NCBI GenBank assembly: GCA_965216875.1
Contig: OZ244207.1
Location: forward strand, 8,032,001-8,096,000
Direction: 5' to 3'
Length of the DNA: 64,000 bases
Source: Rubripirellula sp.
GTDB taxonomy: Bacteria > Planctomycetota > Planctomycetia > Pirellulales > Pirellulaceae
Part shown: piece after piece, positions 11,925 through 30,698 of the stretch
Position numbering within the stretch: position 1 is the first letter of the stretch
Layout: each line of letters begins with the position of its first letter
Notes under the pieces: model-generated
Databases searched by the model: none
The model's input: only the letters and a program-made list of their open reading frames with translations
What the model was told of the DNA's origin: nothing
Translations under genes and position numbers: made by a program

Positions 11925-13177
11925 TGATGCGAGCGATACTTTCGGCTCCCGGCTCCCGTGGCGACGTCAATCCGATGATTGCGATCGGACGTGCGCTCAA
12001 AACGATCGGCTTCGAAGTTGTGATTTCGTTGGCCGAGCCTTATGCCGAGATCGCCCAGCACGCTGGCCTCGACGTGGAACCGGTCGTTTCGTCCGACGCG
12101 TTTCATCAAATGGTCGGCGACCCGAATGTTTGGAAACCGATTCGGGGACCGCGAGCGTTGATGCGCGGCGTCGCCTCCGAATTCCTTGCCGCCCACTACG
12201 AAGTGATTCGCAGGCACCATCGGCCCGGCGAAACCGTTTTGGTCTCGCATCCACTCGACCTTGCTTCACGTGTGCACCGCGATTTCGATTCAAACACTCC
12301 GCTGGTGGATGTCCACTTGGCTCCGTCGATTCTGAGAACAAGCAAAGATCGGCCGCGTCTTTCTCCTTGGTGGTTCGAAACATGGATGCCCAACGCGGCG
12401 ATGTCGGCGACCTATTGGTTTGCCGATTGCTTCTTGATCGACCCACTCATCTGCAAGACGCTCAATCCATTTCGAAAGCAACTTGGTTTGCCGCCTGTGC
12501 GTCGTGTGCTTGATCGTTGGTGGCTCTCACCCGACAGGATCCTGGCGATGTATCCCGAGTGGTTCGCGCCGGCGACAGCGGAGTACTCGCCGCGTTTGAA
12601 ACATGTTGGTTTCCCGTTGGACGATGCCGACGATCGACCCTGCGAAGTCGTCAGCGATCGTCCCGTTGTCTTTACGGGCGGGACCGCACACCATCACAGT
12701 CTCGCATTTTTCCAGCGGGCAATCGATGCTTGTGTCGAGCTCGACCAGCCCGGTTTGTTGGTCTCGACCCATGAAGAGAACTTCCCGCTTTCGATTCCGT
12801 CGCTCGTCAAAACGGCGTCCTACGTTTCGTTTTCAAACTTGCTACCACAAGCCAGCATGCTCGTGCACCACGGCGGGATTGGAAGCACTTCCCAAGCCAT
12901 GTCAGCGGGTATTCCCCAGGTTGTCCGCCCAATGGCGTTTGACCAATTCGATAACGCAACGCGAGTCGAACACCTCGGCTGTGGTCGATGGCTCAAACGG
13001 GACAAAGATCTCGCCCAAACGATTCGACAGCTTCTCGATTCGAAAGACATCGCCAGTAGCTGCGGGCGCACCGCCAAGCAAATGAACGCCACCAACGAAA
13101 CCGCCGCCGCCAAAGCGGCAGCCGAGATCGCTGCAGTCTTGCAGAGGTCGGCAAAAAGATGGCGGGCAGAAGAATGA
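11924..13177 (+). CDS. GT-B glycosyltransferase (GT1/MGT, RhlB-like)
   Basis: GSRGDVNP, VHHGGIGSTSQAM.AGIPQVV.P.AFDQFDNA. Confidence 0.88.
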   Translation: MMRAILSAPGSRGDVNPMIAIGRALKTIGFEVVISLAEPYAEIAQHAGLDVEPVVSSDAFHQMVGDPNVWKPIRGPRALMRGVASEFLAAHYEVIRRHHRPGETVLVSHPLDLASRVHRDFDSNTPLVDVHLAPSILRTSKDRPRLSPWWFETWMPNAAMSATYWFADCFLIDPLICKTLNPFRKQLGLPPVRRVLDRWWLSPDRILAMYPEWFAPATAEYSPRLKHVGFPLDDADDRPCEVVSDRPVVFTGGTAHHHSLAFFQRAIDACVELDQPGLLVSTHEENFPLSIPSLVKTASYVSFSNLLPQASMLVHHGGIGSTSQAMSAGIPQVVRPMAFDQFDNATRVEHLGCGRWLKRDKDLAQTIRQLLDSKDIASSCGRTAKQMNATNETAAAKAAAEIAAVLQRSAKRWRAEE

Positions 13178-13655
13178 AGAGGGAGAGGACAGAAAGATAG
13201 GAGACAGAAAAATGAATGCCGATCACGTGACTCCCGTCCCCTTTTCTCCATCGTCCCCGTGTTACTTGCTCTTAGGCCGGAGGCCGGCATATTTCTGCCG
13301 GTGGCGTGAGCCACCGGACTACGTCCCCTTTTCTTCCCCGCCAAGCAAATGAACGCTTCCAACGAAACCGCCGCCGCCAAAGCGGCAGCCGAGATCGCTG
13401 CAGTCTTGCAGAGTTAGGCAAAAAGATGGCGGGCAGAAGAATGAAGAGGAAGGGACAGAAAGATAGGAGACAGAAAAATGAATGCCGATCGCCTGATGAC
13501 CTATCTCTCTGTTTTTTTGCCCACCATTTTTCTGTCGCTCTTTCCCCGTACTCTCGGCCTTTTTTCTCCTTCCGCTGTCGAATTAGCGATATCTGAGATT
13601 GCCGCAGTCATACTGAGGTAGGCAAAAACATGGCGGGCAGATAAATGAAGAGGCA
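13143..13655. repeat. Cluster of purine-rich dispersed repeats (ggcaaaaagatggcgggcagaa...gacagaaaaatgaatgccgatc), a REP hairpin and a re-duplicated GT 3' piece
   Basis: Units near 13150, 13417 and 13621 (partial). REP-like ccggtggc-gtga-gccaccgg-actac at 13298-13322. Bases 13338-13410 copy the GT gene end. Confidence 0.85.
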
Positions 13656-13701
13656 AAGGGACGCAACAAAGAGGCCTGACCCCTTTGATATTTCGATTGC
13701 G

Positions 13702-13980
13702 TTAAAGGTCACCTAACCCTGCAAGACTCTTTTCAACGGACTGGTTTGAAGGAAGCTCGATAACTTCTCCAATCTCTTTTCGGACCAAGAGCGGCCCATT
13801 CCCAGCCAACGCATGGCTGAAGTCTCGCGTTTCCCAATACGCCTTCGTATTGTAGAAAAAAACGAATCCAACATCGTGTTCCTCAACAACCTCTGGATTG
13901 AAAGCAAGTTCTAAACCGGTATTTCTTTCAATCGCCGCAAGGTACTGATCAGCGATCACTTGAGCTTCTTCTTGATTCAT
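13702..13980 (-). CDS. Orphan immunity protein, YrhB/Imm35-like
   Basis: GFVFFYNT..Y.ET.D...ALAGNGPLLV signature; GGAGG RBS; low GC. Confidence 0.75.
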   Translation of the reverse strand: MNQEEAQVIADQYLAAIERNTGLELAFNPEVVEEHDVGFVFFYNTKAYWETRDFSHALAGNGPLLVRKEIGEVIELPSNQSVEKSLAGLGDL

Positions 13981-14050
13981 TCTAGGGCCTCCCCGGCGAA
14001 GCCTTTTCCCAATCATTCGCTTCGCTCAAGTCGTTTGTCGCGGCGATTCT

Positions 14051-14446
14051 TCATGGCCACGGAAGTTCCTCAATTGCCACCGGACATTCAACCGGTGGCT
14101 GAAAATTCCTCTCTTCAAGATGAGTGAGAAAACTGGGTGGCAAAGAAACATTGTGTTGGTCCACATAATGAGCCAAGTCATCTGGCCATAGCCAGCAGCC
14201 ATCAGATCGGTATGCGCTGCTACCACAAAGCTCTTCGCAGAGTAAACACTTTGAATTCGGTCCTGATGCAACAACGACAAGTGGGGCATTCAGAAGATAA
14301 GAAACGACCTTTTTCTGCTCGAAGCCTGACCAGTCCGCATCTGCAACAGCTTCCACTTGCGGAAGATCAAGTTCACCATCGTCTGACCGCCAGAATCCGT
14401 ACCACTGATGAGACCAGTTTGCCACAATAGAATCGACCGGTAGCAT
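14051..14446 (-). CDS. Putative orphan immunity protein
   Basis: AAGGA RBS right after a toxin fragment; CLLC...SDGCWLWPDDLAHYVDQHNVSLP motif, of a type I recall next to Rhs tips. Confidence 0.65.
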   Translation of the reverse strand: MLPVDSIVANWSHQWYGFWRSDDGELDLPQVEAVADADWSGFEQKKVVSYLLNAPLVVVASGPNSKCLLCEELCGSSAYRSDGCWLWPDDLAHYVDQHNVSLPPSFLTHLEERNFQPPVECPVAIEELPWP

Positions 14447-14457
14447 ACGAAATTCCT

Positions 14458-14668
14458 TTACGGAGACGTTCGAGGAGTAAACGTTGTGAACTCACCTGGG
14501 TCACGGAAGTTCGGAACAGTGCGACCACCAACACGCCGACCACCGCTTATGAAGTGACTGCCGTTCTCGGTTGCAAAAATAAACTTGTTGGGCGCAGAAA
14601 CCGGCACGTTGAGTTTATTGGCAAGATTCTGTGCAAACCCAGTTGCACATTGACCTGTGTTGCAAGAT
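14458..14668 (-). pseudogene. Orphan toxin C-terminal fragment (caspase/C80-peptidase-like SCNTG motif), truncated at the Y1 element end
   Basis: SCNTGQCATGFAQNLANKLNVPVSAP...FTP-stop. No start codon; begins at the GGGGAC repeat stutter. Confidence 0.6.
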
Positions 14669-16178
14669 GGAACGACATGGAACGACGTGGGGACTGGAAC
14701 GACGTGGGGACAGAGCATTAAGTGTAGCGACGCGGGGACAGAGCAGGCAGGCGACGCGGAGACAGAGCACGATTCTATTTGATGTTATTGACGTGGCGAA
14801 TTTACGAGCGTTAAATGGAATCGGTCGAGATCGAAGAACGGTCCAATCGGCTTTCGCAAACTGGCTCTTCAAGACGCGGCTCCAGTTGCCGACCTTTGTC
14901 TTGGGGCTCTTCGATGGCTAGGTCTTCTCGCCGTGATGTGTTTGATCCTGTCGATGTAAACGTCGCTCACGTCATCAACCGCACCGTACGCAGGTGCTTT
15001 CTCTTCGGCCAAGATGAATTAACTGGCAAGAACTTTGACCACCGAAAAGTGTGGATCGAAGAGCTGCTCGAACACTTTGCGGCACATTTCGGCATCGATC
15101 TGCTCTGCTTTGCCGTCCTCTCGAATCACTATCACCTCATCCTGAGGACTCGGCCCGACGTGGTCGCAACTTGGGACGACACCGAAGTGGCTCGCCACTG
15201 GCTGATGATCTGTCCGCATCGAAAGGTCGACGGTAAACCGGCCCAGCCGAGCGAATCGGAATTGAACATGATTCGTAAATGCCCGGTCAAACTCGCCGAG
15301 ATTCGCAAACGACTGTCCGATATCTCGTGGTGGATGCGGCTGCTCAACCAACGTGTTGCCCAACGAGCCAATCGTGAGGAGGAAGAATCAGGCCGGTTCT
15401 GGCAGGATCGTTACAAAGCGATTCGCATTGTCGATGAAGAATCACTATTGGCCTGTGCCGCCTACGTTGACCTGAATCCGATCCGAGCCGCGACCGCCGA
15501 GACGCTCGAGGGAAGTGACCATACGTCGGTTCAGCGCCGGATCAACTCCGAACTCGTCAAACATTCGAAGTTGCCGACCGAGACTAGACGCACGCAGCTT
15601 GCTGAGTTCCTTGCGCCATTAACGCTTGACGAACGTTCGGGCGAAGTGGGGCCGATGCCGAGCGAAACCGATTTCCGGTGCAGCGACAAAGGGTTTTTAG
15701 CGATTGATTTCGAAGGCTACATCGAACTACTCGATTGGACTGCTCGCCAGGAAGTCAAAGGTAAACAAGGCAAGACGCCGACGTCGATGCCTCCGATCCT
15801 TCAGCGTCTCGGAATCGAAGCGAGTAGCTGGCTCGAATTAGTGCACTCCTTCGGCAAGACCTTCCGCATGGTCGCGGGACGTTGCGACCGGGTGGATTGC
15901 ATACGAGGTCATGAAACCGGTCGCCGGTTTCGATTGACACCTACAGCGAGGCGTCTCTTGCCTTCCCGGCTGACGGCGTAGCAGCCTTTCTCCCGTGCAA
16001 GCTAACCGCACCGATCAGCTAGCGGTACGCGCGGCCGTTAAGAAAACGGCCGAAAACTTGCAGCCCCAGACCTAAGTGACCCGATCGAAGCCAGAAGAAA
16101 GTTTCGCATCAACACGATGGTCTCGCGCCAACTCATCGCTAGTGGTCTGTCCCCATGTGCCGCTCCCCATGTGCCGTT
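14669..16178 (+). mobile_element. Y1/HUH transposase element with inverted GGGGACAG termini (TIRYT/RAYT-like)
   Basis: Left end: ggggacagagca at 14706 and 14734, ggagacagagca at 14758, with stuttered ggaacgacgt. Right end: ctgtcccc at 16147-16154, with stuttered ccccatgtgccg. Confidence 0.7.
14914..15981 (+). CDS. Y1 tyrosine (HUH) transposase, IS200/REP-associated (RAYT-like) family
   Basis: HVINRTVRR, SNHYHLIL (HUH), GRFWQDRYK, AYVDLNPIRA (catalytic Tyr). Confidence 0.88.
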   Translation: MARSSRRDVFDPVDVNVAHVINRTVRRCFLFGQDELTGKNFDHRKVWIEELLEHFAAHFGIDLLCFAVLSNHYHLILRTRPDVVATWDDTEVARHWLMICPHRKVDGKPAQPSESELNMIRKCPVKLAEIRKRLSDISWWMRLLNQRVAQRANREEEESGRFWQDRYKAIRIVDEESLLACAAYVDLNPIRAATAETLEGSDHTSVQRRINSELVKHSKLPTETRRTQLAEFLAPLTLDERSGEVGPMPSETDFRCSDKGFLAIDFEGYIELLDWTARQEVKGKQGKTPTSMPPILQRLGIEASSWLELVHSFGKTFRMVAGRCDRVDCIRGHETGRRFRLTPTARRLLPSRLTA

Positions 16179-16532
16179 CGACTGCCATCCAGGCACCACG
16201 GCCTGTCATTCGGCGATCGTCCATGCTCGCCGTGTCTGCGACGCTTTCCCATGCTCGGTTCCAGCGCGGCGGCATCGTGCCGAAGATTGCGACGGCCATC
16301 GTGGCCGTCGCTTGTTGCGCTCGAAGTTGCGCGGACTCGGCATCCAGCCGAAGAAGTTGCGGGGCATCGTGCCCCGCCGGGCTTAGCGCCGTCCAATTGC
16401 GCGCGGGTAAGCCAAGCGGCGCAGTGGTTCCGACGGCTTGCAAGTGCGTCCAGATGGAAAGTCGTTTGGCCGTCGGTTTCAGTTGGAACATCAACCGAGG
16501 TTTCGCCGCGACTGGTCAATCGTTCGCTTCGG

Positions 16533-16844
16533 TCACGTCGTTTGTCGCGGCACTTGTGCGTGAAACGCCTCTTCTGCTTCGCAGACAAGCTTGCCAAGTT
16601 CTGATTCGTAAGGCCACCCGTCCGCAACAGCCATGCCCATGTACCTGTTGGGAATTTCAGCATTCAAAGGATCAGCAAGTGCCGATCGCATTTGCAGAAG
16701 CGTTTGCAGAAAACGTTTAACCTGCGGGTTCATGTAATCAGGGAGGCTTGTGTCGCGATCCCCTGCAACGTGTCTCTCCGCACGTTCAATTGCATTCTCG
16801 ACTCGGTCAACGGCAGTTTCTCGGTTCATTGTCTTAGCCTTCAT
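16533..16844 (-). CDS. Cognate immunity protein of the Rhs toxin (helical, possibly Tsi6-like)
   Basis: ATGA overlap with the Rhs stop; small and helical (LQTLLQMRSALAD...MGMAVADGWPYESELG). Confidence 0.7.
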   Translation of the reverse strand: MKAKTMNRETAVDRVENAIERAERHVAGDRDTSLPDYMNPQVKRFLQTLLQMRSALADPLNAEIPNRYMGMAVADGWPYESELGKLVCEAEEAFHAQVPRQTT

Positions 16845-19800
16845 GGGGCGATCAGATTGTCGAGGTCCGCGATGTACTTCTGAATCTGACCGCCGGGATA
16901 GAAGCCCTGACGAGCTGCTGGACCTTCAAAGATTGTCGTGCCAGGACGAATCTGGAACTGACGGAAATGAGTCATCTGATTCCAATCCGTCGGAAGTGCC
17001 AACGAATTGCGAGTCGCGGGGAATTCTTCAAACAGATAGCGACCTTTAGGCCATGCGTTTACGTTGTCAAAGTAACGAATGCCGTACTCAGCATCCCCAG
17101 CTACTCGGACTTGCATCGCCTTTCGATCGAACGATTCGAGTACTTGCTTCCGGATATGACGCGGAACACCGGCGTCTCGCAACTGCTGTGACGCCTGCCG
17201 AACTCCTGCATACGCTTCCGGCGTTGCGTGCCTGACCGTCGCTGTTGGACTTGGGGCACGTAGTAGTGACCTGCCAGATCCTAACAAGCTAACGGGCGCT
17301 CCTGCAACCGCATTGATCGATTCAGCCGCTAGTTCTCCGGCAACTCCTCGTAGTCCAGCGGTCGCCGCGGCGCGGAAGAGTCCGGCACCGAGGCCCGCCG
17401 CGTAAAACTCTGGTTGAATCGACGTGATTCCCGCGTCTTCGAGGCCGACGGGAATCGATCGTAACGATCGAAGACGCGTGATGATACCTCCGGTTTCGCT
17501 CTCAAAACCAAATGCGTCCGCTCCATGCAACGGCCCTAGGTTGATTGGTAAATTATCCAATCCCTCCGCCCTGAATTGATTCCACAGGTCGCCTTGCAGT
17601 TCCCTCAACGCCATCCGTTCACTGATTGATAACGCGTCCGACCCTCCGGTCGCGTAGAGGTAGTCGGAGCGCTGGCCAGCTGCCTCGTAGGTGAACATCA
17701 TGTCCAAGGCGCGGATTTGTTGGGGGGTATACTTATTATCGAGGAATCCCATCGCTTGGTCCGCGCGGAGATGCTGCAAGCCGTACCGCTCACCGTAGTG
17801 CAGGCGATTAGCGGCATACTGCGTCTGTACGATACTACTTGCGGCACTCGTGAAACCTCCTACGGCACTACTCAGCTGACTGCTAACTGCTCCTAGGTTG
17901 CCGACGCTGATATTGCCTATCGCTGAGCCGACACCTTGCGCGAAATTCGAAACCGATTCCCAACCACTCGGCGTGGGTTGGGAATTTGCGTAATAGCCAG
18001 CAAGGCTTCCCACAACGCTACTGGCGGTAGAGTTGACCGCTGTCCCAATGCTGCTACCCAGCGCGACGAGCGGGTGCCCACTCAAAACAAGTCCGCTTGG
18101 ATCTCGGAAGTTGACCGGATCGCCGGCGGCATAGCTGTAAAGATTGACTCCTCCAGCGTGCCCGATCGGGTCTTCGCTGATGAACCGACCTTGGCCGCCG
18201 TCGTACCAGCGGGCGCGATTGTTGTAGAGCCCGACATCGCTGTCCCAGCTGCGCCCTGCAAAGGCCGCATCGACGGCAAGGGCATCAAGCGCGACCGACG
18301 ACTCGGTGTCATCAAATACGCCGGTGATGTCGCCAAAAGCGTCGTATTCGAGATGCTGTACCAGCAGCTCGTCGGCACCGATCAGAACATCCCGAACGCT
18401 GCCATTGTGGTCGGTTGCTGTCCAATAGGGACCGCTTTGCGTCCCGCCGTGAATAAGCGGATCGACGTATTCTTGCTCGTAGATTGGCGTGTCGGTCGCC
18501 GGTCCACTAAGCACGCGCCGCTTGTAGCTGCCATCAGTCGTGGTGGTATCGTCCGCGCCGGTCTGGTCGGTCCAGTTGCCTTGCAAAACCGCAACCAGCT
18601 GATCGCCTTGATAGACATAGTGTTCGACATCACTGATGTCCCAGTCGCCACCGCCGTTTTGCGTCTCGACGATTTTTCGCACCAACAGATTGCCGTTGCT
18701 GTAGGTCAAGCGAACACGATCCGTTGCCGAGCCCACAGCCGATGGCTTTTGACGCACCTCGACCAGTCGGTTGCGATGGTCCCAGACGTATTCCACGTAG
18801 TCGCCAGGACCGTTGTCACGTCCGGTGAGATTGCCTTCATTGTCATAGGTGTAGGCTGGGCCCGACCCGCCGTCGGTCGTGATGCGGTTGAAATCGCCGA
18901 CGACTTGGTTTGCGACTTCAACGCCATTGTCAAGGACGCGATCACGATTTCCGGCACTATCAAGTTCGAAGACGCGATCGACGCTCGCACTCAAATCGGT
19001 CGCCGAGACGTGGTTGTCAACCAGATCGTAGTCCCAACTGGCCAACCGCCCCGCGTCGTCAAATCCGGCGACCTCGGTGCGGCTTACATCGAGAGTTGGC
19101 CATGAGCTCGTCGAGTCGACCTGGGTGATCCGCGATGCGTTGTCGTAGAGGTAGTCATACGTGGCAAACGGCGAAGCTGACTCACTGTCGCGGCGGTGGG
19201 CAATCTGTTCCAGCCGACCGGAGGGATCGTATGCAAACTGCGATCCAAAGTAGAAATCGAATCCGTTCGTTCCCGTCTGCGGATCATTGTCGGTGTCAGC
19301 GTGACGGGTGATCGACGTGGTACGCCCCGCATCGTCGTAACCAAAGGCAACCGACTTCTCTCCCTGACCTTGCGCGGCCGCTTCGTTGATTAGGATCTGT
19401 CGTCCCAGCGAATCGAATTCAATCACCGCGTCCACGTAGGTGATGTTGTCATCGGGAATCGATTGATTGATCGGCTCGAACGTCTGCTTGTATTGGTAAG
19501 CGTTCAGTCCCGTGCCGGAGTAGTTCGTTAGGTCGTCGTGTTGGTAGGTCTGTAATAGTTGGGGGTTGCCGCGACTGGCGCCTGACGCGTCATCGGAATT
19601 CAACTGTTGGACAAGCCGACCAAGAGCGTCATACTCGAACGTGTCGGTGTAGACCTGCTGTTGGCTGTACGCGTCATCTAGGAAGTAGGAACGCGTTAGC
19701 CGTCCGAGCTTGTCGTACTCCCAAGCCAGTGTTTGTTCGGCAGTGGAGCCGTTGAGGAACGTCTCGCTCGTTTTGCGATCGAGTCCGTCGTAGTCATAGT

Positions 19801-22800: not shown

Positions 22801-25800
22801 CGTGGTTCTGTTGCCCAACCAGAAGCGACGTGAGTTTGATCGCGTCGCCGTGGTATTGATTGAGGCCCGTACCACTTACGGGGCCTGTGTCACCTCCCGT
22901 GGTGTACATCGCGAAGGTCCCCGTGGGACCACTGAAATTGTCGTCGCTGATTCGAATCAATTGCCCCAGGCCGTCCTGGTCGATTCGTTCGATTCGAATC
23001 GCATCAGCGACAACGGCCCCCTCGCCAGCGACCGACTCGAGGCGGATGGTCAGCGAATCTCCGGTGACTTGGAATCGAGATCGTTGTTCTTCGGTTGGCT
23101 GGGTTTCGTCGCGGAGGACTCGCCAAACGACCGCTTCGTTCTCTTCGGTATCGGTTGAGTCGAAGTGACCTCGAGCAGATGTCTCCGACGCAAGCATCCC
23201 AACGTTGACGCCACTGGAGTGGTAGGTGAACGTTGTTACGTTGTCTTCGCCGTCCGTCAGGCTTGTGAGACGACCGGCGCCATCATATTGCATCGACGTG
23301 GAGCGTTCGTTCGCCGTGCCAACATCGCGATGGATGCTGGATTGGCTAACAATATGCTCGCTGCCAATGTCCGTGGCTTGCACGTAGTTGAACTCAGTGA
23401 CAGTTCCCAGTGGATCAGTTGCCCGGTAGAGGCGTCGATTCTTGAAGTCTTGCGTGTTGTAGTACTCAAATACCTCGGTTGCCCCGACCTCATCGGAACG
23501 ATCACGCATCAAGTATTCCGTTCCATCGACAATGCCACCGCTGCCATCCTCGACACCCCAATGAGTGATCACTCGAGAACGATCGTCATGAACGTGGCGT
23601 AGGAGTCGACCACTTTCCTCGTGCACGTAGGTGGTCACATTGCCGTTTTCATCAGTGAATTCGGTGGTGTTTGTGAAGAGGTTGTAATTGAAGCTATGCG
23701 ATGACTTTGGAACAAAGCTCTGGCCTTCGACAACTCCCTCGGTGACGCGAAACGCGCGTTTGTTGGCGTAGTACTCGTAGTCGTGGTAGGTGTCGTCGGC
23801 CTCGATGATTCGAGACATCAGGCCTGTGCTAGGTCCAGCGGCATGGTACTCATATTCAACCTTGTCAAATTCCGGGTTCGTTGCACTGGTGAGCCGAGTT
23901 CCCGCTGGATCGTACTGGTACGTCCAGGTGGCCTCGACAATGCCATCAACAACCTTCTCGACTTCGTGAATCGTTGTGGTCGAGTCATAGTCAAAACGTA
24001 GTGCACGCGAAGTTGTGGCGATATCGTGTACGGCTTCAAGCTCAAACTGTCGAAACCAGTGGTAGTCCAATTGAACACCGTGGCCGTCGCGATCAACGAC
24101 CGAGGAGAGTCGAGCGACATAGTCCAATTCTGTATCGGCAGCGACGGCTGTCACGTTGCCATTGAAGTGATGCTCCAACCCAGTGTCAGATCGATAAACA
24201 AAATTCCCGCTCGTCTCTGTTAGTACGCCGAAGAGTTCTACGGGCGTTTGCCATTGATTGCCAACTTTGGTGAAGGTGTGACGGACACCCGCGGAAGTGA
24301 ACCAGATCATTTCGTCCGGTTTGGTTGGGTCTTGCATCAAGCGATCCCCAAAACTGTGCGTCCAGCCAACGCCCAATCCGACATCAAATTCGGACTGAGA
24401 GTCGTAGTGTCTAGCAAAGTTCAGCGCGACTCCCTTGTTGGGCATAACAACGTCAACATCATCGCGGAACATGTTCCCGTTGAGAACGTTGACTGGATCG
24501 CCGACGTAATTTACGAAATGGGTGGCGGCAGCCTTGATGGTGTCTAGCGTTTGCGCGACCGCGTTGCCTGAGAATCCACCGTTCATTGTCGTGCCGCCAA
24601 GCTGCTGGATCGCATATTGAGCGACGCTGACGCTTGCAGAAAGAGATTTATCTAGAACATAAACTCCTCCCTCCCAATACGACGTGTCATCCCCGGCATA
24701 GCTGTGTGCCTCTGGGATCACCGCTGTCGCCGTATCCACCACATTAGTGGTCAGCTTAATCCAGACTTCATCGAGGATCGCAGGATCTTGGTTGGGCAGT
24801 AGCGATTTGAGATCGGCGCTCGATGTCGCGACGAGGTTCGTACGATTTGCTTGGAATGGGTAATGGTTGGGGCCTTCGCTGGCTCGTTCGCCGAGTTCTC
24901 CACGTACATAGACCGTGCGCCCACCGGGCTCGTCGATGCTATCGATGACCCAGACCGAATTCAAATCCGCGCCGGTGATCGCCGGATCTCCGATGTAAGC
25001 ATCCCGCAGCCCGCGAATCGTCGATACGCTTTCGGTGTTGATCGTTTCCTCGATCACACCACTTTCAAGTGCTGATGCGTTGTAGCCGGTAAGTTGGAAG
25101 AGTTCTTCGTTGCCGAGGTCTGTACTTGATTCGTCCAAGCGAATGTCAATTGAACCGAACGAGCCACCCGGAAGATCGACACCCAAATTGCGAGGTACGA
25201 TGGGACTCTGCAGATGGCTGAAATCACCTGAAAGCAATATGTCATCTGCTAGCACAAGCCCCGCTTGGACATCTCGGTCGTACGGCACATGGTGCATTAA
25301 CGCTTGAGCATGCCTAGCGAACCGCCTTTGGTCATACCAGTATTTTGACGACACATACTGAGTGACATATTCGATGTCAGCGATTGTGGGAGTGTCACCC
25401 GCAGAAATGATCGCTTCACGCCGACGAATCAGGGCGTCATTGGAGTACTGGTCTGCATCAATCGATACGTGGTAATGTCGTCCGAAATCGACGTCGTTGA
25501 TTTGGAATTGCAACGGATTACCGATCGGCACCGAAACGCCCGGCCGAGCTCGATGAATCTGCAAGGTGTTGGTGCCCGCTGGCAACTGAACGGAAGAGCC
25601 GACAGTGTTGCCATCCACAGTAAAGGTCAGCTGGTTGTTTGCATCGACAAACACAGTCATCGCGTCGAGTGCAGCATCGGGCACGATCACATCATGCGAC
25701 CAAGTGTTGGCGACTAGGCGGACCCGATGAGTGTGGTTCAGGGCGAGTGTGGGATTGGCAACCACGTCGCTGAAACTGCCAAGGATTGTTATGCCAGTCG

Positions 25801-28789
25801 CATTTGCATAGCGACCGTCGGTATGAATGGGCTGATCAGCAAGCCGCTTTTGAATGATGGGGCCGTCATAGGGTATCTGCGAGATCGACGCACTCATGCC
25901 ACTGCTGTGAAGCTCTTCGGCGAGCCGGTCTTCAAAGTATTCGATCGGCAGTTGGTCGGACGTCGCGATGTAATCAAACTCATCAAATTCGCCGTTCGGA
26001 CCCGTGAGGGTCAATTCGATTCCGCTTTGGCGGTTCTTCAACTTGAACGACGGGTCGATATCAATCCACTGAAGGCCTTCGTCGGTAGGGACCTTTGCTC
26101 TGACCCACGCGTGAGTGATCTCGGTAATTCCATTTCCAAGGTTCGTAACACCACTACCCGAGAGTGCGTTGAAAAGAAGCAATCGTGCTGCGTGGTGCTC
26201 GCGGGTGCCCAGCCAATCTTGGAGTTCGTCATCGCCAAACTGGACGTCGCCGGTGACGATTTCCGCTTCGATGCCGATCTCGGCGAGCTTGTTAACAAGT
26301 AAAGCGGACTGGTCCCATGGATTCCCTCGTTGAGTCTCCTCTGTCGCCTGAGGTCCCTTCATAAAGCCTGGGTAGAGCTGCATCTCGACGTTGTTGTAGA
26401 CGTCCAAGAAGGCGTTGGTGGTCGCTTGGTAAGGCCCGTCACCATCCACCGGCTCTTGGCCAAGTGATTCGCTGTAGAAGCCGTCGAACCAATCGCCCCA
26501 GTCGGAGTCAACGGTGTCGAATGTCAGGTTCCCACTGGATGAATCGATATGAGAGGTGCTGACATGCCAAGCCGGAGCTGCCGCATTGTCTTGGCTGGGC
26601 GATGTATCGTTGGCAAGCGACGGATTGGTCGAGGCAACGAGGTCGTCGCGTCCGTCGCGATTGACGTCCACAACGAAAAGGTTGCCTCGAAATGCATTGG
26701 ATTGGTGTTCGTGCGACAGCCCTGCCGTAAGCAGTTGCGGTGTTCCGGTTGCTCCGAGTCCGAGTACCCGCCATCGACTATCGTCGACGGATCCATCATT
26801 GGTGATGCTGTCTTTGCGACCGATCAACTCTTCTCTGCCGTCACCATCAAAATCACCAACGAGTACTTCCTCGTCATGCCAGTCGGGACTGAGACTGGTC
26901 GAATAGGGGACGAAGCTCGTTGTGTCTGAAATCGCGATCGTCCATTGCCCCGTCGGATCGCGATACGCAAGATCATCGCGGCCGTCACCATTAAAGTCTG
27001 CGGCACGCCAGGTTTCGGCCGCCGCCGCTAGGCTTAGTACTCTAACACCATCGCTAGAAACAACGTCAAGTGTCGATGCTTTGTAGGACAGCGACTCTAT
27101 CCTGCCGTCTCCGTCAAAGTCGCCCTCCACGGCAAGTTCGTGTTCGTCAAGCTTGTCGGGCGCGATGCCAGACGCGAGCTTTGCGATGGCATTAGCGGAA
27201 AGTGGAACGCCAAAAATTGCGAAATCGTCAATGTACCCGTCGCCACCTGCACCCAAGTGGCCGCCCACAAACAGGGCTGTAAAGTCGGTTGGCAGCAGTG
27301 CCGCGGTGGTATCCGAAGCAACAAGGTGCCCATCGATCCAAATCGACTTGTCCGAACCATCTTGAACAAAGGCAAAGTGCCGCCATTGACCCGGCAAATC
27401 GACTGGGCTGTCGAGGCTCAGGCTCTGGCCCGGGTTTTGGAATCCTGCCGTATCGAAGTAGAGTCGGTTGTCACCGTAAGGTGCTCTGATCGCCAAGCCA
27501 ATGCCAGAGTCGCCAGAAGGAGCTTCGCCAAATACGGTTACAGCATCTCCAAGGGAGTCGATTTGCTGCCAGTACGAGATTGTGAGCCCGTTTGTCAAAC
27601 CAGTATTCAAGAAGCTAGCGTCATTGATCACGCTGTAGCCAGATCGGGTGTTCAGAGCATAATCACCGACCTTGCCAGATCTTCCCCCAGTGTTGTGAGA
27701 GTGTTCGGCTCCGACAAAGTCAGCGGTTGCGTTGTTGTATGTGCTTCGAGCACTGTCAGCCGAGCTGGCGTCGTTGTAGTCGAAATAGGCAATCAGCTCG
27801 AAATCTGTCTTGACTGACACTTTGGCAGGCGTGTGGAGCGTGCCGTCCGTTACCCATACATAGAACTCGTCGTCCCCTTCGAAACCGGAGTTGGGTGTGT
27901 AGGAGAACGACCCGTCCGTTGCGACAGTGCCTGGCTGAAGCGTGCCGTTCGCTGGCGGCGTATTACTGAGAACCGACAACGCCAACCCCAATGGATGCGA
28001 GTCGTTTGTGAGCACGCCGTCAGATGAAGCAATCGTGATCTGATTACCATGAGTGCCGTATGCGTCGTCTACGGACGTTGGCGCATCCTCAGGCGAGCTG
28101 GCGGAAGTGCCGTAATTTGGCTGGAACTGGGCATAGTCGAATAAGTTGACGACGCCATTGCCCTCATAGTCAAAGACGGGGTTAAAGTTGGGGTGCGAGG
28201 AAACGTAACCGTAGGTGGATCGGAACGCGGCGAAGTCAAACAGGCTAACAATCCCGTCACCATCGCTATCCCCGAACAGCCTGAATAGCTGATGTTGCGA
28301 TTTGGTGCCGTAGATGAAGTCATCACCTCCAACACCATCGCCATTGCCGTCCAACGCGATTCCGTCGGCAGTAACCAATGAAGAATTGATTCGAAGCTGA
28401 TAAATACCATCGGTCAGTGAAGCGGGAGATGTCCCGCGGTCTTGCACGCTCGGCCCAGGCTGGAATGTTAGCGATACGACGGTTTTTCCATCGACGACAC
28501 TCGAGGATGTAACATCGGTCGCGAACTCTGCCGTGTTCATATTAGCGACAACAAATGCGTCGCCGCCGCTGATTGACACCTCGGAATCGAATACGACAGA
28601 AATCTCGGTCAGATGCGACCGATGTGTGTCGCCTCCATTGATTTCGACCAGTTCAATTTGCGGTGCAATGTTTGCGGCAAGTAGCGAGCGTGACTCCAGT
28701 CGCTCCAAGAACGCTTTGCGTTTCTTTCGGTTTTTGCGTGCTGTAAGTGCATATTTTGACCGCAGAAGTCCGTTTCGTGGTTTGCGCAT
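16841..28789 (-). CDS. Giant Rhs/YD-repeat polymorphic toxin (3982 aa)
   Basis: In order: planctomycete LERLESRSLLA motif, dockerin-like GDSDGDG repeats, Ig-like, LamG-like, FG-GAP (GDFDGDG), transglutaminase-like, DUF6531-like GDPVN...GWT, many YD repeats, Rhs core RFISEDPIG...NLYSY...DPSGL, then a ~415-aa tip. Confidence 0.93.
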   Translation of the reverse strand: MRKPRNGLLRSKYALTARKNRKKRKAFLERLESRSLLAANIAPQIELVEINGGDTHRSHLTEISVVFDSEVSISGGDAFVVANMNTAEFATDVTSSSVVDGKTVVSLTFQPGPSVQDRGTSPASLTDGIYQLRINSSLVTADGIALDGNGDGVGGDDFIYGTKSQHQLFRLFGDSDGDGIVSLFDFAAFRSTYGYVSSHPNFNPVFDYEGNGVVNLFDYAQFQPNYGTSASSPEDAPTSVDDAYGTHGNQITIASSDGVLTNDSHPLGLALSVLSNTPPANGTLQPGTVATDGSFSYTPNSGFEGDDEFYVWVTDGTLHTPAKVSVKTDFELIAYFDYNDASSADSARSTYNNATADFVGAEHSHNTGGRSGKVGDYALNTRSGYSVINDASFLNTGLTNGLTISYWQQIDSLGDAVTVFGEAPSGDSGIGLAIRAPYGDNRLYFDTAGFQNPGQSLSLDSPVDLPGQWRHFAFVQDGSDKSIWIDGHLVASDTTAALLPTDFTALFVGGHLGAGGDGYIDDFAIFGVPLSANAIAKLASGIAPDKLDEHELAVEGDFDGDGRIESLSYKASTLDVVSSDGVRVLSLAAAAETWRAADFNGDGRDDLAYRDPTGQWTIAISDTTSFVPYSTSLSPDWHDEEVLVGDFDGDGREELIGRKDSITNDGSVDDSRWRVLGLGATGTPQLLTAGLSHEHQSNAFRGNLFVVDVNRDGRDDLVASTNPSLANDTSPSQDNAAAPAWHVSTSHIDSSSGNLTFDTVDSDWGDWFDGFYSESLGQEPVDGDGPYQATTNAFLDVYNNVEMQLYPGFMKGPQATEETQRGNPWDQSALLVNKLAEIGIEAEIVTGDVQFGDDELQDWLGTREHHAARLLLFNALSGSGVTNLGNGITEITHAWVRAKVPTDEGLQWIDIDPSFKLKNRQSGIELTLTGPNGEFDEFDYIATSDQLPIEYFEDRLAEELHSSGMSASISQIPYDGPIIQKRLADQPIHTDGRYANATGITILGSFSDVVANPTLALNHTHRVRLVANTWSHDVIVPDAALDAMTVFVDANNQLTFTVDGNTVGSSVQLPAGTNTLQIHRARPGVSVPIGNPLQFQINDVDFGRHYHVSIDADQYSNDALIRRREAIISAGDTPTIADIEYVTQYVSSKYWYDQRRFARHAQALMHHVPYDRDVQAGLVLADDILLSGDFSHLQSPIVPRNLGVDLPGGSFGSIDIRLDESSTDLGNEELFQLTGYNASALESGVIEETINTESVSTIRGLRDAYIGDPAITGADLNSVWVIDSIDEPGGRTVYVRGELGERASEGPNHYPFQANRTNLVATSSADLKSLLPNQDPAILDEVWIKLTTNVVDTATAVIPEAHSYAGDDTSYWEGGVYVLDKSLSASVSVAQYAIQQLGGTTMNGGFSGNAVAQTLDTIKAAATHFVNYVGDPVNVLNGNMFRDDVDVVMPNKGVALNFARHYDSQSEFDVGLGVGWTHSFGDRLMQDPTKPDEMIWFTSAGVRHTFTKVGNQWQTPVELFGVLTETSGNFVYRSDTGLEHHFNGNVTAVAADTELDYVARLSSVVDRDGHGVQLDYHWFRQFELEAVHDIATTSRALRFDYDSTTTIHEVEKVVDGIVEATWTYQYDPAGTRLTSATNPEFDKVEYEYHAAGPSTGLMSRIIEADDTYHDYEYYANKRAFRVTEGVVEGQSFVPKSSHSFNYNLFTNTTEFTDENGNVTTYVHEESGRLLRHVHDDRSRVITHWGVEDGSGGIVDGTEYLMRDRSDEVGATEVFEYYNTQDFKNRRLYRATDPLGTVTEFNYVQATDIGSEHIVSQSSIHRDVGTANERSTSMQYDGAGRLTSLTDGEDNVTTFTYHSSGVNVGMLASETSARGHFDSTDTEENEAVVWRVLRDETQPTEEQRSRFQVTGDSLTIRLESVAGEGAVVADAIRIERIDQDGLGQLIRISDDNFSGPTGTFAMYTTGGDTGPVSGTGLNQYHGDAIKLTSLLVGQQNHATWSFSNLVPGFYRIATTWTTVAGADSTAAYRIYDGPDTSGSYVESVVDQTVDPSAGDHYNAFTKTFTYDAAGNVTELRQGVSTVSDSGLLIQTSQYHHTGAPELLTDGTGRSVASSYDDVGRLTKSVNLGDPLTTDDDLVSEFEYDRRGRIIQSIDPLGRGTTIEYDYRGNIVSRVDASGSKWVTTYDAKGNPVSTTDPIGRVTELVYDNRDRVIQTNLADGSTNHTSYDGLGRVVSTVDELQRKSEVTYNPRGQVTAALAAKDSSVETQVANKYDHFGDLIESIDARGNVTQYFHDDLGRIVKTMVLAAADAANADPSTSARTTANQRPIYVETTGFDSAGNAVVRIVYDTLLADDRIATSDLLADDLHQRVETGLTAVNGTLGKNVVQSIHFTFDSLGRLSQTIHADGTQRLVEYDAAGRVRFEENERGARSENVFDAFGRLNQSILPDPDGSLSQLSPIVTHEFDAAGNRVAMTDANGHVQQTVYDALDRPVQITDAVGNRSEWVYDTAGQLVASVNALGHAIASQYDSRGRVVRQSGAHPDGTSATAPPVSLSSYDDAGNLVSSVDPLGYETTFVYDELNRLVEERAQRSALVNGVVTTLAPSDDAVTRFGYDGNGNLTTTEVALGDFPGYITTTDYDELNRLVQQTLPDPDDVAGSSSNPLASLVIDYQIDGYGNVRETSESAPGVPTRVDRFEYDSRNRLTAETLNSTALSLDNDFVRNEWQYDAVGNRVASFSAVNSSDPNVNVVNRYEYDLLNRMTVQRMDAPNQSDLGRHRTEFFYDAAGNLIDETFTITSYTGTGEASVTTSYAYDDANRPIGVTSDSGGIDATATTGYDRVGNVVKRVDATGIATTFEYDALNRQVKVVHPDPTPTDGLVSDLVEHFRYDASGNLVSHTNGEGNQTDYLHDSFGNIVSQTTVMPTASDLETVFAFDERGNMTALTDPNGNQTTFVYDNLNRVTKEIQGTTETGTNTRTYQFDNRGNLDSMTDRNGRVTDYDYDGLDRKTSETFLNGSTAEQTLAWEYDKLGRLTRSYFLDDAYSQQQVYTDTFEYDALGRLVQQLNSDDASGASRGNPQLLQTYQHDDLTNYSGTGLNAYQYKQTFEPINQSIPDDNITYVDAVIEFDSLGRQILINEAAAQGQGEKSVAFGYDDAGRTTSITRHADTDNDPQTGTNGFDFYFGSQFAYDPSGRLEQIAHRRDSESASPFATYDYLYDNASRITQVDSTSSWPTLDVSRTEVAGFDDAGRLASWDYDLVDNHVSATDLSASVDRVFELDSAGNRDRVLDNGVEVANQVVGDFNRITTDGGSGPAYTYDNEGNLTGRDNGPGDYVEYVWDHRNRLVEVRQKPSAVGSATDRVRLTYSNGNLLVRKIVETQNGGGDWDISDVEHYVYQGDQLVAVLQGNWTDQTGADDTTTTDGSYKRRVLSGPATDTPIYEQEYVDPLIHGGTQSGPYWTATDHNGSVRDVLIGADELLVQHLEYDAFGDITGVFDDTESSVALDALAVDAAFAGRSWDSDVGLYNNRARWYDGGQGRFISEDPIGHAGGVNLYSYAAGDPVNFRDPSGLVLSGHPLVALGSSIGTAVNSTASSVVGSLAGYYANSQPTPSGWESVSNFAQGVGSAIGNISVGNLGAVSSQLSSAVGGFTSAASSIVQTQYAANRLHYGERYGLQHLRADQAMGFLDNKYTPQQIRALDMMFTYEAAGQRSDYLYATGGSDALSISERMALRELQGDLWNQFRAEGLDNLPINLGPLHGADAFGFESETGGIITRLRSLRSIPVGLEDAGITSIQPEFYAAGLGAGLFRAAATAGLRGVAGELAAESINAVAGAPVSLLGSGRSLLRAPSPTATVRHATPEAYAGVRQASQQLRDAGVPRHIRKQVLESFDRKAMQVRVAGDAEYGIRYFDNVNAWPKGRYLFEEFPATRNSLALPTDWNQMTHFRQFQIRPGTTIFEGPAARQGFYPGGQIQKYIADLDNLIAP

Positions 28790-29172
28790 CCTGAGCTCAA
28801 ATGATATGTGCCATGGCCGATGCGACGGCCGGTTCAGTAACTGCCTTTACCAGCACCGACATGCAGCCGGCGAGAGTTATTCTCACGATACAGGTCGTGA
28901 GCGGTCTTTGCGATAGGGCAATCGCAAAAATAAATGGCATCGACAACCCTTAATATTTAAAGGTGAAGCGACGAACTCTCTGCTCAATCCTTCCATGATG
29001 CGGAGCCGCGACAGCCGTATTCTTCCAAAAGGATTTGGTGTCGAACACCGTTATCGGATGATGAAGAACGAGATAGCAAAATGATGGACGGAAAAAACAA
29101 GAGCTGATCGCAGTCCATGTTTCTCTCCCTCTTTCCGCAGCCATTTGACGGTGTGGGCTAGGGCCCTCTTCG

Positions 29173-29295
29173 GTTGTTGCTGACAGGTTGGTTTTGGACG
29201 ACCTGGGCGCAATGCGTGTGCGGAGACTTGATCGAGATTTCCAATCGGTCTGACTTGCCAATGCATCGGCGACGTGGCGGCTGATCGTCTCGAAC
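29173..29295 (-). pseudogene. Degenerate copy of the 3' end of the CobW-like GTPase gene
   Basis: Aligns to 31219-31343 (DALASQT.W..DQVSAHALRPGRP.PT) with substitutions and frameshifts. Confidence 0.85.
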
Positions 29296-29344
29296 CGACC
29301 GGGAACTGTGGTGCAAGAAAAGACCTCCGTCCCCTGTTTTCCTC

Positions 29345-29637
29345 TGCTCGTGCACCACGGCGGGATTGGAAGCACTTCGCAAGCCATGTCAGCGGGGATT
29401 CCCCAAGTCGTTCGCCCGATGGCGTTTGACCAATTCGATAACGCAACGCGAGTCGAACACCTCGGCTGTGGTCGATGGCTCAAACGGGACAAAGATCTCA
29501 CCCAAACGATTCGACAGCTTCTCGATTCGGATGACGTCGCCAGCAACTGCGGGCGCACCGCCAAGCAAATGAACGCCACCAACGAAACCGCCGCCGCCAA
29601 AGCGGCAGCCGAGATCGCTGCAGTCTTGCTGAGGTAG
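29345..29637 (+). pseudogene. Duplicate 3' end of the glycosyltransferase gene
   Basis: Matches 12858-13142 with about 12 mismatches in ~285 bp (hand count); ends VLLR-stop. Confidence 0.92.
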
Positions 29638-29985: not shown

Positions 29986-30118
29986 GCGCAGCACCGGTTT
30001 TCACCACTCGCTCCGTCCACAATTCCCCGGCTGTTTCGAATGGTATTTGCGTCGTTGGCAAACTCAGCGATAATCGGGCCGAAGTTCTAGGTCTTCCACC
30101 GTCTTTCCATTCGAACGC

Positions 30119-30662: not shown

Positions 30663-30698
30663 CAACTTCTTGAACCGGAAAAAACTAAACGGGCATGC

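Follow-up and report, generated by a model that had tools for sequence, protein, structure and literature searches.

TIRtrons (TIRYT elements) were described by Di Nocera et al. in 2013 as a Y1 transposase gene placed between inverted repeats tagged GGGGWSAS, the repeats being dispersed as single, paired, and clustered copies and R. baltica being named as rich in them (PMC3733652). In the TnpA-Y1 classification of Quentin et al. in 2018 (PMC6006769), TIRYT was tied to subclass 2.1 (238 aa, NHVH or NH[YF]H, YIELNP or Y[IV]HLNP, and a C-terminal HTH-like domain), while for subclass 2.3 (NHYH, YVDLNP, about 325 aa, an insertion between HuH and Tyr, a long tail, and several copies of moderate identity) REP-like flanks were not found; in the cited parts of the two papers, the descriptions of TIRYT and of subclass 2.3 were based on sequence alone. 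TnpA-REP/RAYT and IS200/IS605 TnpA form a 5'-phosphotyrosine that is transferred to an attacking 3'-OH, and they cut at set sequences (CT, CA) via a guide tetranucleotide beside a hairpin (Corneloup et al. 2021, PMC8266576). IS91 one-ended transposition (PMC13181058) involves an HUH enzyme and one fixed end, with failed termination carrying adjacent DNA, with single-strand circles, and without target duplication; its ends oriIS and terIS are distinct, and its target is a tetranucleotide. Orphan rhs-CT/rhsI arrays (Koskiniemi et al. 2014, PMC3967940) are composed of a full Rhs gene followed by core–tip–immunity modules; the expressed tip is replaceable via homologous recombination, and orphan use was explained through duplication plus recombination. 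A 2026 preprint (10.64898/2026.07.13.738213) mentions, in the part cited, IS sites and Xer systems, not TIRYT, adjoining poly-immunity clusters. TIRYT ends as heads of Rhs cassettes were not found in the open-access literature, a scope that excludes the supplements of PMC3733652 and PMC6006769 and papers under subscription, any of which may list such ends.

The window was a 64,000-nt stretch of Rubripirellula sp. contig OZ244207.1 (positions 8,032,001 to 8,096,000), and it carried an Rhs island with the following features:

11924-13177, plus strand: glycosyltransferase (GT) gene, left island border (Pfam EryCIII-like_C, E 7.5e-20).
12858-13323, plus: left copy of a 469-nt direct repeat bracketing the island and containing the GT 3' end, repeat B, short-family ends, and REP (95.5% to 29345-29813).
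13228-13258, minus: short-family TIRYT end GGGGACGGGAGTC (13228-13241), 11-nt flank, and truncated end GGGGAC (13253-13258); related junction at G000:5743005.
13280-13323, minus: GTAG-footed palindrome belonging to a dispersed REP-type family (43 genomic BLAST hits, four surrounding the Y1 gene at G000:5390428); the direct repeat stops at the palindrome foot.
13323-13337, minus: junction J1, truncated short-family end GGGGAC plus 9-nt flank, from the sequence.
13338-13496, plus: 160-nt copy of 13071-13230, joined at J1 (95% identity).
13668-13693, minus: short-family end GGGGTCAGGCCTCTTT plus flank, directly past the Imm35 stop; the same end brackets an intact short transposase (G001 L320).
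13702-13980, minus: Imm35 immunity gene (Pfam PF15567, E 1.6e-12).
13986-14006, minus: possible decayed end (GGCTTCGCC GGGG..AGGCC) just ahead of the Imm35 start, read by eye against G000:6183038 and the G002 heads.
14010-14044, minus: 35-nt repeat past an immunity-like gene, second copy at 16517-16551, resembling the inner part of G002 head 2.
14051-14446, minus: 131-aa ORF past the truncated tip, from its position the likely immunity gene of that tip (no Pfam hit over cut-off).
14458-14668, minus: truncated toxin-tip fragment, cut at the left junction of the element (69% to the C-terminus of Rhs-type protein P0002).
14669-14705, plus: stutter array, 10-nt flank in three copies, one with a partial end, from the sequence.
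14706-14746, plus: long-family left ends GGGGACAGAGCA (14706, 14734), from the sequence.
14914-15981, plus: Y1/HUH transposase, 355 aa, with subclass 2.3 signature (NHYH, YVDLNP; H72, H74, Y184; Pfam Y1_Tnp 25.6 bits, cut-off 23).
16142-16178, minus: long-family right end GGGGACAGACCAC (16142-16154) plus stuttered flank, from the sequence.
16180-16551, minus: non-coding leader-like DNA, 16328-16384 matching leaders of head-led G002 Rhs modules (86-91% over 57-59 nt).
16533-16844, minus: 103-aa ORF past the Rhs gene, from its position the likely cognate immunity gene (no Pfam hit).
16841-28789, minus: full-length Rhs protein, 3982 aa (RHS_repeat E 2.8e-107, DUF6531, TIGR03696 core).
29186-29304, minus: diverged copy of the CobW 3' end (85% to 31237-31354).
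29316-29344, minus: junction J2, short-family end GGGGACGGAGGTCTTTT (29316-29334) plus 10-nt flank, an island head on the Rhs strand, from the sequence.
29345-29813, plus: right copy of the direct repeat (95.5% to the left copy).
31216-32382, minus: CobW-family gene, right border (Pfam cobW, E 2e-20).

The Rhs locus contained a full Rhs gene with the core motif, a tip, a small downstream gene, and more tip and immunity genes; by this gene content it is a polymorphic toxin locus with orphans, tip toxicity and immunity protection being predicted.

The HUH enzyme of the island is, as classified from its sequence, a long TIRYT-type transposase of subclass 2.3 with GGGGACAG ends. Its HuH motif lay in LSNHYHLIL and its Y motif in AYVDLNP, its 355 aa included 110 residues between H74 and Y184 and a 170-residue tail, and four full long-gene copies (43-100% identity) were present in this genome, all as in subclass 2.3; the assignment was made by motifs, length, and copy number, the tree only parting long (100/99) from short rows. 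H72, H74, and Y184 were invariant in 57 aligned sequences. GGGGACAG at 14706 and 14734 and inverted CTGTCCCC at 16147 surrounded the gene as GGGGWSAS-fitting inverted repeats of the TIRYT kind, and the TIR-associated Y1 class mentioned in the initial annotation does exist, as TIRYT (PMC3733652). An inverted pair was found in 26 of the 61 related loci having at least 300 nt on both flanks, GGGGACAS words were the top 8-mers near the long gene in 44-45 of 78 loci, and the genome contained 244 GGGGACAG sites, of which 153 were clustered; no base was conserved at +8 to +29 across 153 ends. No GTAG-footed hairpin lay within 600 nt on either side of the island gene, and the flanks of the six further Y1 genes inspected in this genome were palindromic and lacked GGGGWCR. 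Elements in G001 and G002 were present as 9, 5, and 3 copies at 98.8-100% identity, and no fixed target duplication over 12 nt was seen, 17 copies (three of them cut by contig ends) having no common flank stretch longer than 12 nt; near-identical copies with such unshared flanks mark these elements as mobile. In L052, L076, and L117, Rhs sequence was interrupted by long-family ends at 8-12 nt, and the long-family element of the island was a later or separate insertion that cut the orphan tip. The island enzyme had no sequence match in PDB (profile E 0.7 to a 140-aa transposase), and its AlphaFold model (mean pLDDT 74.7) was uninformative because the HUH core was badly built and no fold reached Z 5.

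The junctions in the window were real and lay 9-11 nt outside GGGG-tagged ends; joins about 10 nt from such ends, as originally proposed, were seen here and in relatives. At 13323, GTCCCC plus 9 nt was followed by a copy of GT 13071-13230, and the join was placed at +9/+10 because paralogue G000:5743199 shares 10 flank nt with this site. At 29329, GTCCCC plus 10 nt was followed by a 469-nt copy (29345-29813) of 12858-13323 (95.5% identity), the GT part of which looks like another allele (seven synonymous and six other codon changes over 97 codons, the first six all synonymous). Likeness of the truncated tip to its best homologue P0002 (69%) began at SCNTG, namely, at +10/+11 of the last stutter (14669-14705). 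CTGACCCC at 13676, located 18 nt from the Imm35 stop, had no donor fixing its join, and this exact motif was present in one other genome among 200. Assembled contigs from four runs (at most three samples, one study) showed zero differences from the window over 13463-14885 and 15279-29374 and spanned the tip junction as well as the right end; the far side of the 29344/29345 join comprised 30 letters in contigs, one below the bridging rule, and 13337/13338 was covered by none of the contig pieces listed (four runs, one strain). As for two of the checks suggested at the outset, (i) no circle or empty-site joint was observed in the contigs of these four runs of one strain, contigs dropping rare variants, and (ii) the best GT and CobW matches were adjacent in 0 of the 30 relatives listed, these queries giving no syntenic allele. 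No cognate enzyme was found for repeat family B, one of six GxxExxY genes lying near a hit.

The initial annotation assigned the junction motifs to the island transposase as its own termini, an assignment that fails because these motifs agree with the ends of another, short TIRYT family kept here only as fragments. Past GGGGWC, the junction motifs run GGGGACGGRRGTC(TTTT) or GGGGTCAGGCCTCTTT, versus GGGGACAG(A/G)GCA in the long family, and four of the cited motifs (13236, 13323, 29329, and 13676) were of the short type. The 29329-type end bracketed 225-249-aa NHWH/YVERNP genes in L162, L220, L258, L259, and L261; a Y1 gene of about 238 aa between GGGG-tagged inverted repeats was found at these loci plus L318 and L320, the family motifs being NHWH or NHFH, and YVERNP. 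Short- and long-family proteins were at most 21-38% identical, over short stretches only, and this genome held four long genes and only fragments of the short one.

Tandem duplications were found at CTGTCCCC as 22 events over 244 sites, 14 of which overlapped +9 to +11, with no peak at the 91 unclustered CTGTCCCC sites. At other GWCCCC sites, 200 of 5061 had a duplication versus 206 of 5000 random ones, and both profiles were flat. The bare GWCCCC hexamer (5305 sites, flat profile) was rejected as a signal; the proposed association of junctions with GTCCCC/GACCCC was confirmed at the places cited in the window and exceeds chance only for full ends. Also rejected was GWCCCC-N5-7-TCC, whose genome-wide count, suggested as a check, was not enriched (258 versus 206-264 at six other offsets). 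Of 111 tandem events (deduplicated, from five sets), most began between -5 and -14 relative to the first G and a few as far out as -17; all 35 units of at least 20 nt started within -14 to -5, with 3' ends spread from -1 to +30. In the short family, 14 of 15 events started at -6 to -13, and at the G002 heads 10 of 11 started at -6 to -12 (one multi-copy row dropped in each). The offset was loose, about -5 to -14. Such a set start with a free far end, seen in both families, would fit nicking at a fixed distance followed by rejoining to whatever 3'-OH is available.

In relative G002, gene-less solo ends head many short Rhs-core ORFs. Of 24 short core ORFs, 10 had GGGGWCRS in the 300 nt upstream on their own strand, compared with 8 of 308 control ORFs (Fisher P 1.6e-8, such P values being overstated because the genomes are kin), and 1 of the 24 had it on the other strand; AAAGGGGWCR had 30 sites in 9 of 21 Rhs regions versus 3 sites in 3 of 20 control regions. 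Head 1, which corresponds to the left end of L318, an intact short element, had 13 copies. Nine of them lay no more than 3 kb from a TIGR03696 core, a nearness partly by construction because head 1 is fused to Rhs DNA through one ancestral fusion. Its 78 pairs shared up to about 1040 nt inward and at most 12 nt outward, and each copy was therefore joined separately. Tips behind heads had no BLAST match to one another (45 core ORFs), and several heads led just 27-80 nt of shared DNA. Head 2, GGGGTCAG-N5-GTTTTCGGT, was present only in G002 among 61 genomes, and no transposase was tied to it in them. A further end sequence alongside GGGGACAGAGCA and GGGGACGGGGGTC was GGGGTCAGGAGCC. A 3.4-kb stretch inside G002 element L315 was rejected as cargo because the 629-aa protein that it encodes is presumably an IS66-type transposase. 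In agreement with the initial annotation, solo ends are active well away from any transposase gene, and in G002 they precede Rhs cassettes far more often than background.

The Rhs link is patchy and weak outside G002, and most elements lie away from toxins. The strict head pattern stood ahead of 3 of 61 short core ORFs outside G002, and AAAAGGGGWCRGG was near a core in 0/17, 0/7, 0/4, 0/7, and 2/9 cases in five genomes; G345 (21 cores) and G337 (12 cores) had no AAAAGGGGWCRGG and G208 (33 cores) had one, while G326 and G348 had more than 200 copies but 1 and 0 cores, respectively. In favour of a link, Rhs cores were found in 6 of 78 long-family loci versus 0.5 expected (137 cores, about 197 Mb). 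A dedicated toxin shuffler, as first envisaged, is not supported: Rhs or toxin genes were neighbours at 8 of 78 related loci, an Rhs core lay within 5 kb of just 1 of the 20 long-family end clusters in this genome, and Rhs was found at none of the 119 loci with the 29329-type end; nor was the proposed toxin/immunity swapping seen as an exchange of the expressed tip. Rhs tails also contained other mobile DNA.

From these sequence patterns, the junctions are probably scars of TIRYT-type HUH transposases of two families. Each would open one strand roughly 10 nt 5' of its GGGG end and link this end to a free 3'-OH lying at a variable distance, so that a solo end could carry neighbouring DNA, including Rhs toxin–immunity cassettes. 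The scheme would start from what is seen in both families, an end motif of its own with joins at a fixed distance outside and a variable far end. The nick would fall on the GGGG strand, the enzyme staying on the end-bearing piece, as HUH chemistry suggests (PMC8266576). The free 3'-OH would then be extended by 7-60 nt and rejoined, giving a stutter, or a longer peel would end in a long duplication, in fusion to a foreign 3' end, or in circle formation. The G002 heads show an end that was fused once to an Rhs fragment and then joined again at numerous new sites within Rhs arrays, oriented with the toxin strand and ahead of different tips. Least securely, homology in the Rhs part, or here in the GT 3' end, might steer or fix the far end; the 469-nt repeat and the head at 29334 could fit arrival of the island from another strain. 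The best explanation is a general and selfish activity from which toxin arrays profit in some lineages: gene-less ends lie about 10 bases from joins and at the start of spare toxin cassettes, so the transposases likely help build and reshuffle arrays, and such one-ended activity likely builds Rhs orphan arrays in some planctomycetes. A more tentative proposal, on balance doubtful, is that TIRYT ends serve as one-ended origins building Rhs arsenals: a solo end would be nicked about 10 nt upstream, a single strand with core, tip, and immunity gene peeled and circularised or joined at a new site, and recombination via the Rhs core would install the new tip and leave the old one as a head-led orphan. 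This circle model predicts the same tip as head-led orphan and as expressed tip, which was not found among 45 G002 core ORFs.

It is rather unlikely that TIRYT elements and their miniature copies were passengers inserted in neutral Rhs tails like any IS, with deletions leaving solo ends and homologous recombination alone making the arrays. That account would accommodate Rhs-rich genomes with zero or one such end (G208, G337, and G345), the location of most elements and miniature pairs among ordinary genes, the heads leading only 27-80 nt of common DNA, and the orphan tip destroyed by the long element in the window, and tip exchange via recombination is established (PMC3967940). However, head-1 copies keep one Rhs fusion point yet share at most 12 nt outward, which counts against recombination copying because recombination would carry longer outer flanks; two-ended insertions should leave inverted pairs, and of 24 ORFs, 10 had a head on the toxin strand versus 1 on the other strand.

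The version in which the long-family enzyme of the island recognises every GWCCCC-type end in trans as a dedicated toxin/immunity shuffler, including GGGGACGGGGGTC and GGGGTCAGGCC besides its own GGGGACAGAGCA, is very improbable. Both end types do share GGGGWC and the offset, the genome holds four long genes and only fragments of the short one, and a long gene or remnant lies within 4 kb at two of its three Rhs loci. Against it, the two families have separate bracketing motifs, Rhs is distant from 19 of the 20 long-family end clusters, neither Rhs nor toxin genes neighbour 70 of the 78 related loci, and the hexamer alone gives no signal. Very improbable, too, is an origin without nicking, in which an end-bound protein or the G-run would stall the polymerase and slippage or template switching would produce stutters and joins. 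The loose offset and a mild excess of 2-5 nt microhomologies, often in the G-run (34 versus 20 expected over 111 events), would suit it, yet 53 of 111 joins lacked microhomology (random joining would give 59), neither the 91 unclustered CTGTCCCC sites nor the other GWCCCC sites showed a peak, and all 57 sequences compared retain the catalytic H-x-H and Tyr.

Should TIRYT ends be one-ended origins of this kind, orphan modules would have a transposase-driven source, and the enzyme would be an HUH nickase that measures distance, in contrast to the IS200 and REP enzymes with their guides. An HUH enzyme whose cut is placed by its distance from a short motif and which joins any 3' end would also be a new kind of tool for joining single-stranded DNA. 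The fixed 10-nt offset names strand, place, and substrates for a first assay, and the head-led G002 modules offer a concrete, testable source of orphan 5' ends in one lineage.

Compared to TIRYT, the island element had the same Y1 gene, GGGGWSAS inverted repeats, and dispersed repeat family, but some long-family copies had other motifs and those in G002 direct ends; stutters and a toxin link were seen here and a cut site and one-ended movement are proposed, none of them given in the cited parts of PMC3733652. The island enzyme carried the subclass 2.3 signature (PMC6006769), yet the 2.3 genes here had motif-tagged ends and moved as near-identical copies. The short family was close to subclass 2.1 in length (225-249 versus 238 aa) and in its GGGGWSAS-like ends, but its NHWH/YVERNP differed from the 2.1 consensus listed there. 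HUH-Tyr chemistry like that of RAYT and IS200/IS605 (PMC8266576) would be expected of the present enzymes from their family, whereas the join here lay at a set distance in variable sequence beside a non-hairpin end; the GTAG-footed hairpin flanks of REPtron/RAYT (TnpA-REP groups 2 and 3) were lacking within 600 nt of the island gene. The orphan rhs-CT/rhsI arrays had the same layout as the present locus, and a transposase-made orphan 5' boundary, not described in the cited part of PMC3967940, is proposed here. IS91 (PMC13181058) would work alike, but the island elements were not members of it, having two like ends instead of oriIS/terIS, a short variable flank travelling with the end, and no target sequence seen; the sharing pattern of head 1 would nonetheless fit IS91-like one-ended mobilisation of adjacent DNA.

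The window corresponds to C1:8032001-8096000 of the source genome G000 (8.26 Mb, 56% GC). Its toxin island was located between a glycosyltransferase (GT) gene and a CobW gene, and this interval contained a gene for a 3982-aa Rhs protein, an immunity-like ORF, the Y1 transposase, a truncated toxin tip with its ORF, and Imm35:

11924-13177, GT gene, one island border
12858-13323 and 29345-29813, 469-nt direct repeat bracketing the island (95.5% identity)
13135-13660, 29630-29990, 30690-31210, 38600-39050, and 41075-41205, repeat family B (GGGACAGAAAGAT / ATTTTTCTGTCCC; 14-15-nt period)
14914-15981, Y1 transposase gene
29186-29304, copy of the CobW 3' end (85% identity)
30228-30662, DUF2204 nucleotidyltransferase gene with repeat family B on both sides
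31216-32382, CobW gene, convergent with the GT gene, other island border

All joins cited in the initial annotation were found in place: at 13323-13337, GTCCCC plus 9 nt was followed by a 160-nt GT-end copy, and at the end of 29316-29344, GTCCCC plus 10 nt was followed by the 469-nt repeat copy. The truncated tip displayed 69% identity to the C-terminus of the Rhs-type protein P0002, the similarity beginning directly past the last 10-nt stutter (short tandem duplication at an element end). At 13148-13177, the resident GT gene had TCG in place of the TAG of both partial copies, and thus it read nine codons further, into repeat B. A 22-nt tandem array (7231-7362) and a 101-nt direct repeat (9215-9418) were observed outside the island, and the stretch 28990-29050 resembled a putative decayed planctomycete attC site.

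The island transposase (355 residues; closest named relatives from Pirellulaceae and other planctomycetes) carried NHYH and YVDLNP, the signature of TnpA-Y1 subclass 2.3 as defined in PMC6006769. The GGGGACAG ends of its element matched GGGGWSAS, the TIRYT end consensus (PMC3733652); TIRYT is the TIR-associated Y1 class named in the initial annotation. This long family had four full copies, with GGGGACAG stacks alongside, and one fragment in G000. Among 78 related loci, several of them from the same genomes, GGGGACAS words were the commonest 8-mers within 500 nt of the gene (44-45 loci), an inverted end pair was present in 26 of the 61 loci having both flanks, and end motifs differed among subfamilies. 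Sets of nine, five, and three copies at 98.8-100% identity in relatives had unrelated flanks with no target duplication of >12 nt, and the long-family units are therefore mobile elements. One element in G002, a genome of the same genus, had GGTGCCACCCACC as both end motifs in direct orientation (L114-L118, five copies at 98.8-100%), which would suit same-strand excision. At end clusters of G000 (e.g., 6854167, 8123818, 6556003, and 5743012), long-family ends were often joined, 7-13 nt out, to members of other dispersed repeat families, which may have supplied the 3' ends.

The GWCCCC hexamer, proposed as the junction signal, was rejected as such. G000 had 5305 copies of it, 54 of them in the window; duplication junctions gave flat profiles both at other GWCCCC sites (n = 5061) and at randomly chosen sites (n = 5000), and the TCC extension of the proposed GWCCCC-N5-7-TCC stayed at background level. 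The 244 sites of CTGTCCCC had 22 distinct tandem events, 14 of which overlapped +9..+11. Counted on the GGGG strand from the first G, duplicated units mostly started 5-14 nt 5' of it, a few as far out as -17, and ended anywhere from -1 to +30. The 111 deduplicated events behind this pattern came from G000 (18), the set of 78 related loci (58), G001 (two families, 26 and 4), and G002 (5); a sixth set had no events, and the total includes two multi-copy rows whose joins were ambiguous. All 35 units of ≥20 nt began within -14..-5 (P of about 1e-12 for uniformly placed starts, a null in which kin are wrongly counted as independent), and microhomology was 0 in 53 of the 111 joins (59 expected at random), with some excess at 2-5 nt. 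The short family (second TIRYT family, 225-249 aa) shared this offset (14/15 events starting at -6..-13), and 10/11 stutters at the G002 heads described below began at -6..-12. HUH enzymes are left with a 5'-phosphotyrosine after cutting, which is resolved by a 3'-OH (PMC8266576). A nick at a set distance, followed by elongation from the free 3'-OH and religation, would leave the 5' start fixed and the 3' end variable, and we infer that the duplications arose in this manner.

The initial assignment of all termini to one enzyme was not borne out: motifs at 13236, 13323, 29329, and 13676 matched end types that bracket short Y1 genes elsewhere. The sequence GGGGAC(GGRRGTC...), next to an A-rich flank, was present at 13236, 13323, 29329, and 29724, and the motif at 13676 was GGGGTCAGGCCTCTTT. 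The 29329-type end occurred at 119 loci beyond G000 (106 metagenome and 13 genome; 26 with short flanks), nine with a short Y1 gene and none with Rhs; its inverted pair enclosed a 225-249-aa NHWH/YVERNP gene at L162, L220, L258, L259, and L261. The 13676-type motif lay on both sides of a gene 62% identical to the short-family one (L320 of genome G001). The short family was reduced to two fragments in G000 (6182405 and 5624874), and therefore at least two enzymes made the window joins; the one owning most of them would thus have been lost or have acted in a donor strain, and the long enzyme may recognise short-family ends too. Repeat family B (about 50 BLAST matches in G000) had a core similar to the TIRYT end, and no cognate enzyme was found for it. 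Another Y1 gene (G000, 5390428-5391087) had a YIDRQMEHH motif like subclass 1.2, and its flanking palindromes belonged to the same family as window 13280-13323; subclass 1.2 is described as lacking REPs.

The proposed motif link to Rhs/immunity genes was strong in G002 (45 Rhs cores) but patchy in other genomes. Of the three Rhs loci in G000, two had ends on the Rhs strand immediately downstream of an immunity-type gene, and the second of these further contained remnants of both transposases. Rhs cores were present at 6/78 long-family loci versus 0.5 expected, and in L052, L076, and L117, Rhs sequence was interrupted 8-12 nt from an element end. In G002, AAAGGGGWCR had 30 sites (15 in one stutter array) in 9/21 Rhs regions versus 3 sites in 3/20 control regions. 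Of the short core ORFs, 10/24 were preceded within 300 nt by a same-strand end and 1/24 by an opposite-strand end, versus 8/308 control ORFs; for the strict head pattern (a solo element end preceding an Rhs module), these were 7/24, 0/24, and 0/308, respectively. Head 1, 49 nt like the left end of intact short element L318, had a single fusion point to Rhs coding sequence and 13 copies genome-wide, nine ≤3 kb from a listed core, a proximity partly due to its fusion to Rhs DNA; its copies shared ≤12 nt outward (78 pairs) and 27 to ~1040 nt inward. Head 2 had 12 copies (≤1 mismatch), eight within 3 kb of a core, with outward sharing of ≤14 nt (10 copies examined), and window 16328-16384 was 86-91% identical to its leaders. 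Head-led tips in G002 were mutually unrelated. Single head cases came from G208, G331, G023, G324, and L016, the sole AAAAGGGGWCRGG copy of G208 preceding an orphan (spare core-tip-immunity module). A 17-nt flank-plus-end unit was repeated 15 times in tandem upstream of an orphan Rhs module at L279:11559-11806.

Dedicated toxin shuffling, as initially proposed, was not supported: of the 20 long-family end clusters in G000, only one lay ≤5 kb from a core. Named neighbours of the 78 loci were mostly enzymes (e.g., sulfatases and kinases), with an Rhs or toxin domain in 8/78. Outside G002, the strict head preceded 3/61 short core ORFs; the A-footed motif lay near a core in 2/44 cases (five genomes), was absent from Rhs-rich G345 and G337, and exceeded 200 copies in G326 and G348, which had 1 and 0 cores, respectively. 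AAAAGGGGWCRGG numbered 251, 212, and 70 copies in G326, G348, and G323, respectively; among the matches listed for G326, many were arranged as inverted pairs with a spacing of about 60 nt, a burst of miniature elements. No tip was found as both orphan and expressed tip among the 45 G002 core ORFs, and contigs of four runs of one strain contained neither a circle junction nor an empty site. TIRYT ends appear to be heads of orphan Rhs modules, strongly in one genome and patchily elsewhere, an arrangement of which no description was found in the literature searched.

On the Rhs strand, the island ran from a short-family head (29334) through a diverged CobW piece, Rhs, and orphans plus Imm35 to the GT repeat. 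Over 97 codons, the copy on the right showed 7 synonymous and 6 other differences, of which the first six were synonymous, as though it were another allele. The island geometry would result if a piece beginning at the head had come from a related strain and been fixed via recombination in the GT end; it would equally result if a long stretch had been duplicated locally and then replaced. The direct repeat terminated exactly at a GTAG-type palindrome foot, and a REP-type enzyme may therefore have contributed to this end. The long element cut an orphan tip, either afterwards or as a separate event.

These elements are of a known kind, TIRYT, the long family falling into subclass 2.3 and the short one being 2.1-like. 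Their apparent distance-set nicking and one-ended joining work like the one-ended transposition of IS91 (PMC13181058), but the elements here are not members of that group.
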